Positions 56,566 to 57,904 of a stretch of DNA of 64,000 bases are shown piece after piece. Source of the stretch: Alphaproteobacteria bacterium (GTDB lineage Bacteria > Pseudomonadota > Alphaproteobacteria > Rickettsiales > SXRF01); NCBI GenBank assembly GCA_033763575.1, contig JANRKF010000010.1, forward strand, positions 13,376 to 77,375, given 5' to 3'. The position numbers and the translations under genes were made by a program. How positions within the stretch are numbered: position 1 is the stretch's first letter; the number at the start of each line of letters is the position of its first letter. A model generated the notes under the pieces. That model saw only the letters and a program-made list of their open reading frames with translations. It was not told the DNA's origin and searched no databases.

Positions 56566-57420
56566 ATGGCGGACATGACGCTGTTTTCCGCCATTACGCT
56601 TACCCTTTTTCCGGATATGTTCCCGGGACCGCTCGGCCATTCGCTGGCGGGCAAGGCGCTGGAAAAAGGCATCTGGAGCCTGCAAACTCTTGATTTGCGC
56701 GACTTTGCGCTAGATAAACACCGCACGGTCGATGATTCGCCTTACGGCGGCGGCACCGGCATGGTGATGAAGCCGGATGTGCTGGCAGCGGCGCTGGATC
56801 ACGCGAAAACCCTGCTGCCGGGCGCCACGCTCATCTACCCCTCGCCCCGTGGCGTGCCGATAACGCAGGCGCTTATACAGCAATTGGTCTTTGGTCATGG
56901 GTCTTTGGTCAATGGTAAGAATGCACCAAAGACTAAAGACCAACAACCAAAGACTCCCTCCGTCATCCTCCTCTGCGGCCGTTTTGAGGGGATTGACCAG
57001 CGGATTATCGATCATTATGGCCTTCTGGAGGTAAGCCTCGGTGATTTTGTGCTTTCCGGCGGGGAAATCGCCGCGCTCGCCATACTGGATGCGGCGGTCC
57101 GCCTGCTTCCGGGGGTCATCGGCAATGATGAGGCGACCAAAAACGACAGTTTCTCGCTGGGTGAGGCAGCAGCCGAACGAGCCGTCAGCGGCGCCCCATG
57201 CGATTTTCAGAAGGAAATCGCGGGGGCAGCTAAAAATTCCGGGAACCATGCAGATTTCGGTAGACTCCTCGAATATCCTCATTATACTCGCCCGCCTGAT
57301 TGGAATGGACTTGGCGTGCCGGAAGTGCTATTATCCGGCGACCATGAAAAGATAAAAAACTGGCGATTGCAGCAAGCAAAAGATATTACGCGTGCGCGAA
57401 GGCCGGATTTACTGAAATAG
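56566..57420 (+). CDS. trmD: tRNA (guanine-N1)-methyltransferase
   Basis: [51 protein letters not shown]. Confidence 0.97.
56884..56955. repeat. 72-bp heptamer-arm palindromic element in frame inside trmD
   Basis: ttggtct ttggtca tgggtct ttggtca ... caccaaa gactaaa gaccaac aaccaaa gact. Confidence 0.88.
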
Positions 57421-57442
57421 AACTACAAAAAGGATACGAGCA

Positions 57443-57817
57443 ATGAATACGCTACAAAAATTTGAAGCCGCAACGCAGGCGAAGCTGGCTGAAGGCAAGA
57501 AGATCGATGCATTCTCGCAGGGCGACACCGTGCGCGTGAACGTGCGCATCATCGAAGGCAACAACGAGCGTATCCAGGCGTTTGAAGGCGTATGCATCGC
57601 AAAGAAAAATGCCGGCCTCCGCTCGGCGTTCACAGTGCGCAAAATCAGCCACGGCGAAGGTGTTGAGCGCGTATTCCCAACCTTCTCCCCGCGTGTTGAC
57701 AGCGTTGAGCTGATTCGCAAGGGCACCGTGCGTCGCGCAAAACTCTACTATCTCCGCGGCCTCACCGGCAAAGCGGCGCGTATTGCTGAAAAACGCGATA
57801 TCCAAACCGAAGAATAA
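57443..57817 (+). CDS. rplS: 50S ribosomal protein L19
   Basis: [38 protein letters not shown]. Confidence 0.98.
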
Positions 57818-57904
57818 TTTGGTTTTTAGTCTTTAGTCGTTAGTCTTTGGTCTTTGTCGCTAGAAACTAACGACCAAGGACCGAAGCCCCATGACCAAGG
57901 ACCC
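57818..57904. repeat. heptamer-arm element (TTWGTCT family) at the rplS-leuC junction
   Basis: tttagtc tttagtc gttagtc tttggtc ... actaacg accaagg accgaag ... accaagg. Confidence 0.8.

Follow-up and report, generated by a model that had tools for sequence, protein, structure and literature searches.

The window analysed here is a stretch of 64,000 nt (G000:C10:13376-77375; positions below are those of the window) from G000, a metagenome-assembled genome (MAG) of 1.94 Mb that comprises 35 contigs, has a G+C content of 55.6% and is 92% complete. The relatives recovered by a TrmD-based search carry the labels of uncultured Rickettsiales or of Alphaproteobacteria MAGs. At the locus of interest the gene order is rpsP, rimM, an orphan open reading frame (ORF), trmD, rplS and leuC, and our subject is a hairpin built from tandem heptamers that lies in frame within trmD, together with a sibling that fills the gap between rplS and leuC. 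The 72 nt in trmD are best explained as one copy of a non-coding hairpin repeat that is dispersed through the genome and has short tandem arrays of 7-nt units as its arms. The features on which the argument turns are these:

56566-57420, + strand: trmD, encoding the tRNA m1G37 methyltransferase; 284 amino acids, intact, all family-invariant residues kept
56884-56955, + strand: in-frame heptamer-unit hairpin (insert 1); left arm about 56884-56918, loop about 56917-56924, right arm 56925-56955
about 57157-57245, + strand: second in-frame palindromic insert (insert 2), about 29 amino acids (residues about 198-230), missing from most orthologues
57443-57817, + strand: rplS (ribosomal protein L19); its stop codon TAA (57815-57817) adjoins the intergenic element
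57818-57904, + strand: intergenic heptamer-unit hairpin occupying the entire rplS-leuC gap; stem 57829-57902
57897-57901, + strand: AAGGA in the right arm of that hairpin, the likely leuC Shine-Dalgarno sequence, judged from the structure and the LeuC N-termini of relatives
57906-59312, + strand: leuC (3-isopropylmalate dehydratase large subunit), with MKTLYDK as the probable start; the frame is open from ATG 57891

Insert 1 is an imperfect palindrome of 5+5 heptamer units (TTGGTCT/AGACCAA). Its left arm consists of the units TTGGTCT, TTGGTCA, TGGGTCT, TTGGTCA and ATGGTAA, its right arm of the complements of ..AGTCT, TTGGTTG, TTGGTCT, TTAGTCT and TTGGTGC. Tandem Repeats Finder (TRF) assigns it a period of 7, and a repeat search finds arms of 30 nt that are 80% complementary and separated by 8 nt. 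As RNA the element folds with -35.9 kcal/mol (z -7.08), as good a fold being reached by none of 200 shuffles.

To place the insertion we aligned TrmD from 80 loci of species genomes with 30 relatives and the nearest metagenomic proteins; the sample includes G002, a congener of G000 of which 2.02 Mb were compared. TrmD of the window matches Pfam tRNA_m1G_MT and NCBIfam TrmD in separate blocks, with the insert skipped, and insert 1 sits in frame in the otherwise intact gene, six residues upstream of the invariant GRFEG loop. In the nearest TrmD proteins (P0002-P0006, 232-237 amino acids, 80-84% identical outside the inserts), as in G002 and the relative L103, there is a short loop of the form L-(I/V)-x-P-P-S-S-V-(I/L)-I-L-C-G-R-F-E-G, and more distant TrmDs have a 4-residue loop. 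At the DNA level CTC ATC GCC CCG CCC TCT TCT GTC in L103 stands against TTG GTC, 66 nt and CCC TCC GTC in the window. Relative to L103 and G002, 22 new codons have taken the place of three (A-P-S), a net gain of 19, and the first TTGGTC of the repeat span represents the host's own conserved L-(I/V) codons; no target duplication is seen against either relative. Other lineages carry different insertions in the same loop, a 14-residue A-rich insert in G001 and a 'PPQAGG' insert in P0009 and G014. Insert 1 was gained in the lineage of G000, in the helix-strand loop ahead of the GRFEG loop, which binds S-adenosylmethionine (AdoMet, SAM). The initial annotation of this DNA had spoken of an insertion of exactly 24 codons, a figure that describes the span of the repeat and not the change in the gene. 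It was right to place the element just before the SAM-binding motif of an essential enzyme, and its argument, which hung on orthologues not having a loop of equal length, is upheld by the short loops just described.

That annotation had also proposed mapping the insert onto the TrmD structure. In an AlphaFold2 model built from 45 sequences (mean predicted local distance difference test score, pLDDT, 77.9) the core of the protein is confident and is matched by solved TrmD structures with TM scores of 0.75-0.81 normalised to the target; insert 1 is modelled as coil of low confidence (pLDDT 50-62) between the helix 101-109 and the strand 132-136. All 67 invariant alignment columns are kept, including Y91, P94-G96, G138-R139, E141-G142, D144 and S164-E167. 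Since trmD stays open and these residues are kept, insert 1 must be translated, as about 22 residues predicted to be disordered, and the intact ORF and the invariant residues suggest that TrmD function is retained despite the inserts. Three loops of the trefoil knot bind AdoMet in TrmD, the GxxEG loop among them (Ahn et al. 2003; Elkins et al. 2003), and insert 1 therefore makes a surface connection inside the knotted region longer.

The sibling between rplS and leuC contains a 27-nt segment (57826-57852) that matches insert 1 directly with 81% identity. Its units are TTAGTCT, TTAGTCG and TTGGTCT against GACCAAG and ACTAACG, and it folds with -32.3 kcal/mol (z -5.2) into a stem that begins 11 nt past the rplS stop. 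The AAGGA in its right arm arises by an A-to-G unit variant (CAAGGAC versus CAAAGAC), and the predicted fold pairs it, by way of G.U, to GUCUUU in the outermost stem. The stem that hides this Shine-Dalgarno sequence would be opened by any ribosome that terminates on rplS, so that translation of leuC may depend on that of rplS. LeuC of all relatives begins M-(x)-K-T-L-Y-D-K, corresponding to ATG 57906, which is probably the functional start; the initial annotation had the sibling overlap the first leuC ATG and, whilst ATG 57891 does lie inside the element, it is probably not the codon used. ATGs of this kind in right arms give apparent N-terminal extensions, 'MPKAQSLMP...' in SurE and 'MTKDP' in LeuC (L233 of G002, L244 of G013 and window 57891), and automated annotation will tend to mis-call starts at such arm-borne ATGs.

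A genome-wide census of G000 by TRF and inverted-repeat search shows that these two hairpins belong to a large population. There are 55 hairpins at period 7 and 18 at period 8, with only 0-3 at each of the periods 5, 6, 9, 10 and 11. Intergenic DNA makes up only 14.5% of the genome and yet holds 47 of the 73 hairpins; these fill a median 0.96 of the gap in which they lie, 30 of them come within 15 nt of both flanking genes and 37 lie between co-oriented genes. The remaining 26 (36%) are in frame in housekeeping genes, and all of them keep the frame; the hosts of heptamer hairpins include recG, mfd (twice), uvrA, murD, glyS, hemF, purL, kdsB, murB, a gltB-like gene and trmD. The superfamily to which insert 1 belongs (GGTCTTT/AAAGACC) has 26 hairpins, six of them in frame in genes (trmD, uvrA, glyS, kdsB, murB and the gltB-like gene) and 20 between genes, which bears out the earlier claim of a single family present at coding and non-coding sites alike.

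The unit itself helps to explain how such copies are tolerated. GGTCTTT/AAAGACC is stop-free in all six frames and, because 7 and 3 are coprime, each frame of a perfect heptamer array encodes the same cyclic heptapeptide, here SLVFGLW or KDQRPKT. It is this equivalence of frames, together with the lack of stops, that accounts for the recurrent ...GSLV...PKTKDQ... peptides and allows copies to survive in protein loops in either orientation.

Several members of the superfamily are more alike than the family at large. Over its 72 nt, loop included, the trmD copy shares 85% identity with the copy in the gltB-like gene (G000:C2:37948), the common loop reading AATGGT(C)AAGAA(T)GCACCA, and 79% with the glyS copy, against a median pairwise identity of 60% for the family. 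All three coding copies have the same non-repeat loop and the same succession of variant units, and a mixed-unit block of 24-25 nt is identical in trmD, C2:37955 and C30:34208. Because the three coding copies have the non-repeat loop in common, the trmD element appears to have been copied from another miniature. The congener G002 has only 8 hairpins against 73 in G000, and most sites of G000 are empty there; where a coding site is compared, the insertion in G000 replaces a short native stretch of 5-58 nt at the orthologous site of G002. Half of the eight hairpins of G002 share an orthologous junction with a hairpin of G000 but consist of different units, the number of shared junctions expected by chance being about 0.16 (our own estimate, from 34 occupied sites among some 1,700 junctions).

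A possible source of the hairpins is a set of cassettes that carry a gene of the Pfam family PF05635, the Avd-like four-helix-bundle proteins (S23p) of 23S rRNA intervening sequences. G000 has two such genes, at C2:32103-32486 (133 bits) and at C21:39485-39811. The C2 cassette fills exactly the space from the preceding gene's stop codon to the cysD ATG, and its arms (...TGGTCTT TGGTCAT TGGTCGT TCGTCAG... and ...CAAAAAC CAAAAAC CAAAGAC CAACGAC C) have 14-15-nt strings in common with those of the trmD element; the C-terminus of its PF05635 protein, QKPKTKDQRP, is encoded by an arm. The arms of the C21 cassette (GGTTGTT/AACAACC) belong to another hairpin family of G000. This kinship was overlooked in the initial annotation, whose assignment of the coding and non-coding copies to one family otherwise holds.

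The association is not confined to G000. PF05635 genes are present in 18 of 31 genomes of the order, and at least 21 of the 29 PF05635 loci examined in relatives are flanked by inverted arrays of 7-9-nt units, each locus with a unit of its own. In G017 the arms of one cassette (AGTCGTT) match the roughly 14 AGTCGTT hairpins of that genome. Truncated cassettes with their arms still in place include ones that have 41 or 50 N-terminal codons left and ones reduced to the C-terminal half. None of the cassettes examined sits in 23S rRNA; all occupy gaps between protein genes (cysD, iscU, pdhB, surE and others). PF05635 proteins cluster by junction across genera (pdhB 100/99, surE 100/99, GNAT 99/95), as do those of the cysD junction in G000 and G005 (99/92), with label clustering as low as that observed in none of 200 shuffles, and the cassettes are therefore long-term residents of their junctions. 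The arms of orthologous cassettes differ from genome to genome (AGGTTTT in G010, AGGTTAC in G004) and yet left and right remain complementary; such compensatory change argues that the stem is maintained. The loops of the trmD and rplS-leuC copies (8-20 nt) hold no PF05635 ORF, and when inverted arrays spaced 150-3000 nt from each other in G000 were screened for further cargo none came to light, though the screen flagged the C21 cassette and missed the C2 cassette.

A PF05635 protein of G000 also scores 33 bits on bAvd. As a separate observation, G000 encodes a likely diversity-generating retroelement (DGR) outside the window, in a prophage-like region (G000:C19:4410-8592), with a reverse transcriptase (PF00078, 65 bits), a weak bAvd-like protein and a near-identical pair of segments (YVWSASSDG...LLGARP) that looks like a variable repeat and its template repeat.

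Taken together, these results make it probable that the trmD hairpin is an ORF-less miniature of a PF05635 cassette of the intervening-sequence (IVS) type, translated as a tolerated disordered loop. An ORF-bearing cassette would have lost its ORF to leave a miniature with the same arms, presumably in that direction, and the miniature would then have been copied from another miniature to a new site without target duplication. In RNA the stems are probably substrates of RNase III, by analogy with rRNA intervening sequences, and RNase III is encoded in G000 (228.7 bits). For the copy in trmD, the likeliest status is that of a passenger that is tolerated, and not that of an adaptation.

A number of points weigh against this reading. 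No copying enzyme or mechanism has been identified, and we know of no transposase activity in PF05635 proteins. No target-site duplication is seen at about 19 sites of G000 that are empty in G002, and hairpin abundance does not track cassette number, G000 and G002 both having two cassettes with 73 and 8 hairpins respectively. There is no sense-strand G.U excess of the kind that selection at the RNA level would leave, 16 of 21 coding heptamer hairpins fold better as antisense, which lends no support to selection on mRNA structure, and the complementarity between the two arms of a GGTCTTT element does not significantly exceed that with the arms of other copies (p = 0.09). PF05635 genes could also have entered pre-existing hairpins, instead of giving rise to them. 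The antisense bias of the coding copies, which amounts to more A.C than G.U mismatches in the mRNA, is worth recording in its own right: stable mRNA hairpins may be selected against, or the making of copies may favour one strand.

What else might have produced such hairpins? They could have arisen where they stand, in the manner of short tandemly repeated repetitive (STRR) sequences, by polymerase slippage on a chance heptamer followed by template switching at each locus; nothing would then be mobile, and the likeness between copies would reflect convergence on slippage-prone units. The restriction of the architecture to 7-8-nt units fits the slippage idea (Mrazek et al. 2007, as summarised in PMC4679880), units do vary within an arm, neither target duplication nor a transposase is seen, orthologous PF05635 cassettes swap units in place and, as noted above, half of the G002 hairpins occupy junctions shared with G000 with different units. 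Growth in place is nonetheless doubtful in view of the non-repeat loop and variant-unit order shared by the three coding copies and of the mixed-unit block identical at three sites. Unit families, moreover, recur at different sites in different genera (GATGACCA and AGTCGTT, for example), and the empty trmD site of L103 (CTC ATC GCC CCG CCC TCT) holds no proto-heptamer from which an array might have grown. It is also possible, if on the whole unlikely, that the intergenic hairpins are selected as regulators, be it as RNase III sites, as mRNA-stabilising 3' hairpins or, at rplS-leuC, as a translational coupler, with the trmD copy as a by-product; such a role is compatible with descent from cassettes. 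Only about 2-3% of junctions genome-wide carry a hairpin, whereas in at least 10 of about 24 relatives whose LeuC is 75% or more identical the gap between rplS and leuC is taken up by a hairpin with units of 7 or 8 nt, at least five different units being used; at least nine relatives other than G000 have a different unit there (AGTCGTT, AGATAACC/GGATGACC, CGAGAnA and GATGAGC among them). The covariation of orthologous cassette stems and, at leuC itself, the G.U-paired Shine-Dalgarno sequence in an outer stem 11 nt past the rplS stop point the same way. The closest relatives, however, do without: the gap is 24 nt in G001 and 65-69 nt, non-periodic and weakly folding (z -1 to -2), in G002 and L103. 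Nor do the sense strands show the G.U bias mentioned above, and the hairpin tracks PF05635 and not the operon: four of four hairpin-bearing genomes have PF05635 and none of five PF05635-free genomes has the hairpin, several PF05635-free genera having a terminator in the gap. L002, L004 and L008 have large rplS-leuC gaps, but a search of these for a PF05635 gene turned up none; they hold a terminator and an unrelated reverse-strand ORF.

Insertion in frame into conserved protein loops of a Rickettsiales-like genome might suggest a classical mobile palindrome, either a Rickettsia palindromic element (RPE) or a repetitive extragenic palindrome (REP, or a paired REPIN) moved by a REP-associated tyrosine transposase (RAYT). 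We consider this very improbable. The Y1 transposase family of RAYTs (PF01797) has no match in G000, at 92% completeness, while it does match in 6 of the 14 genomes used as controls; TrmD and the insert peptide, scanned against NCBIfam with E up to 10, hit only TrmD models and no RPE model, a test that covers the RPE models held in that library, such as RPE1; and an Rfam scan of 56300-58200 gave only chance matches to miRNA-precursor hairpins, far below threshold. The 72 nt of tandem heptamers also differ from RPEs of 100-150 nt. An assembly artefact can hardly be credited. G000 is a 35-contig MAG and repeats can mis-assemble, but the insert keeps the frame within a contig of 106 kb, the 26 comparable in-frame copies all do likewise, and relatives assembled independently carry elements of this kind at orthologous sites.

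The element is best regarded as uniting three known kinds of sequence: inverted pairs of heptamer arrays, in-frame repeats of the RPE type and the intervening sequences with S23p. RPEs are reported (Ogata et al. 2000, 2002) to be in-frame palindromes in loops of essential conserved proteins that also occur between genes. The hairpins of G000 likewise lie in frame in conserved protein loops, apparently with function retained, and between genes. They have no sequence relationship to RPEs, however, and differ from them in their tandem-heptamer arms and in the existence of an ORF-bearing relative. A miniature inverted-repeat transposable element (MITE) resembles them in that a short ORF-less form shares inverted ends with an ORF-bearing element and truncated intermediates exist; unlike MITEs, the G000 hairpins have no target-site duplication, and their ends are variable tandem arrays and not fixed terminal repeats. 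A partner with the same ends is present in G000; it encodes PF05635, which is not known to act as a transposase.

Closer parallels come from two other systems. In the 23S rRNA IVS of Coxiella an S23p ORF lies between terminal inverted repeats, the stem is cut by RNase III, and there are tandem heptamers (GACAGAT) whose copy number varies between strains (Warrier et al. 2016, PMC4990558). S23p IVSs (Leptospira, Coxiella, Brucella) share with the full-length cassettes described here a PF05635 (S23p/IVP) ORF between stem-forming terminal inverted repeats, and the heptamers of the Coxiella stem region add to the likeness. The cassettes of the G000 type, by contrast, sit in stop-to-start gene junctions and not in rRNA helices (helix 25 or 45), most members in G000 are ORF-less and about a third of the miniatures are translated inside genes. 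Within the literature that could be searched we came across no account of S23p cassettes reduced to miniatures that lack the ORF and lie in frame. Heptamer simple sequence repeats (SSRs) form the second parallel. Xanthomonas has 70-75 convergent pairs of GGGAATC arrays that favour positions between aligned ORFs and close to stop codons (Rehm et al. 2015, PMC4692102), a study that describes heptameric repeats as lacking a detailed literature, and TAACTGA arrays adjoin start codons in Beggiatoaceae (PMC4679880). Like these and other heptamer SSR inverted pairs (cyanobacterial STRR, Nostoc GGGGAYT), the G000 hairpins have tandem 7-nt units, often in convergent pairs, are enriched between co-oriented ORFs near stop codons and appear in lineage-specific bursts. 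They have the 7-nt tandem arms and the convergent stem-loop of STRR-like elements and, as a family, if not in the trmD copy, which is coding, their mainly intergenic position. The SSR reports find the repeats under-represented in coding regions and discuss G-quadruplexes, whereas the G000 hairpins are visibly linked to PF05635 cassettes, use units other than G-tract motifs and, in more than a third of cases, lie in frame in housekeeping genes.

If the cassette reading holds, the element has an ORF-bearing form, truncated intermediates and abundant miniatures, and the nature of heptamer STRRs and the origin and spread of S23p-type intervening sequences would merge into one testable system. Repeat DNA whose units are stop-free is a steady source of new protein loops, and stop-to-start hairpins that hide a downstream Shine-Dalgarno sequence can serve as a simple model of how operons are punctuated or translation is coupled.

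A more far-reaching version of the idea, which we offer as speculative and rather improbable, is that PF05635 (S23p/Avd-like) cassettes are an unrecognised class of mobile element, in which a pentameric nucleic-acid-binding protein recognises the heptamer-array stem and copies replace native sequence without target duplication, possibly by the action of a reverse transcriptase on an RNA intermediate. PF05635 proteins resemble the DGR accessory protein Avd (PMC10053308), and G000 encodes a DGR-type reverse transcriptase with a bAvd-like partner. If this were true, a single copy-and-replace process would account for the hairpins at junctions, for those in frame in essential genes and for the identical solo (GAGTACC)x4 arrays, found in at least six genes and described below, and mobile PF05635 cassettes would also explain the spread of rRNA intervening sequences.

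TrmD carries a second insertion, which the initial annotation, having noticed insert 1, overlooked. The core of insert 2 (57190-57231) is a GC-rich REP-like hairpin of a family unrelated to insert 1; it folds with -27.1 kcal/mol (z -5.7) and has about seven further copies in G000. The region is of low confidence in the AlphaFold2 model (pLDDT 44-60) and lies in the interdomain linker, directly after the conserved (D/E)-S-F, a motif that we take to carry the catalytic acidic residue of TrmD in that linker. Similar inserts occupy the same site in G011 (L085) and P0010, and TrmD of G010 (L083) has an insert of the 'PLPEGEG' type at a third site. An essential, knotted enzyme that is a drug target thus appears to tolerate two repeat-derived insertions, one ahead of the AdoMet loop and one in the catalytic linker, outside Rickettsia proper. 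Peptides of the 'PLPEGEG / PNLPPxGGG' type, which look like translated GC-rich REP-type repeats, are found in TrmD of G010, at the insert-1 site in TrmD of P0009 and G014, and in GlyS and HemF of G000.

Three further tandem-unit hairpins lie in the window: an octamer family (AGGTTGCT/ACCTAGAA) at 6342-6437, CAGGTGA/TCACCTG at 12750-12827 and, at 26290-26413, a pair that brackets the trpS-hemB control region. Between rimM and trmD there is an orphan ORF of 495 amino acids (55048-56535) without a Pfam match; in the relative L103 rimM directly overlaps trmD, so the orphan ORF is an insertion into this ribosomal-protein operon. G000 also has solo arrays, perfect (GAGTACC)x3-4 repeats without an inverted partner that are in frame in at least seven unrelated genes and encode the cyclic peptide PSTEYRV (window 8883-8915; G000:C2:37754, C6:4292, C10:82312, C13:98204, C24:37510 and C32:808). 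The orthologous stretch of G002 is unremarkable sequence with a length of 7-28 nt (in one gene 28 nt exactly), so that native codons have been replaced; the exception is C24:37510, where G002 has the same (GAGTACC) array with near-identical flanks.

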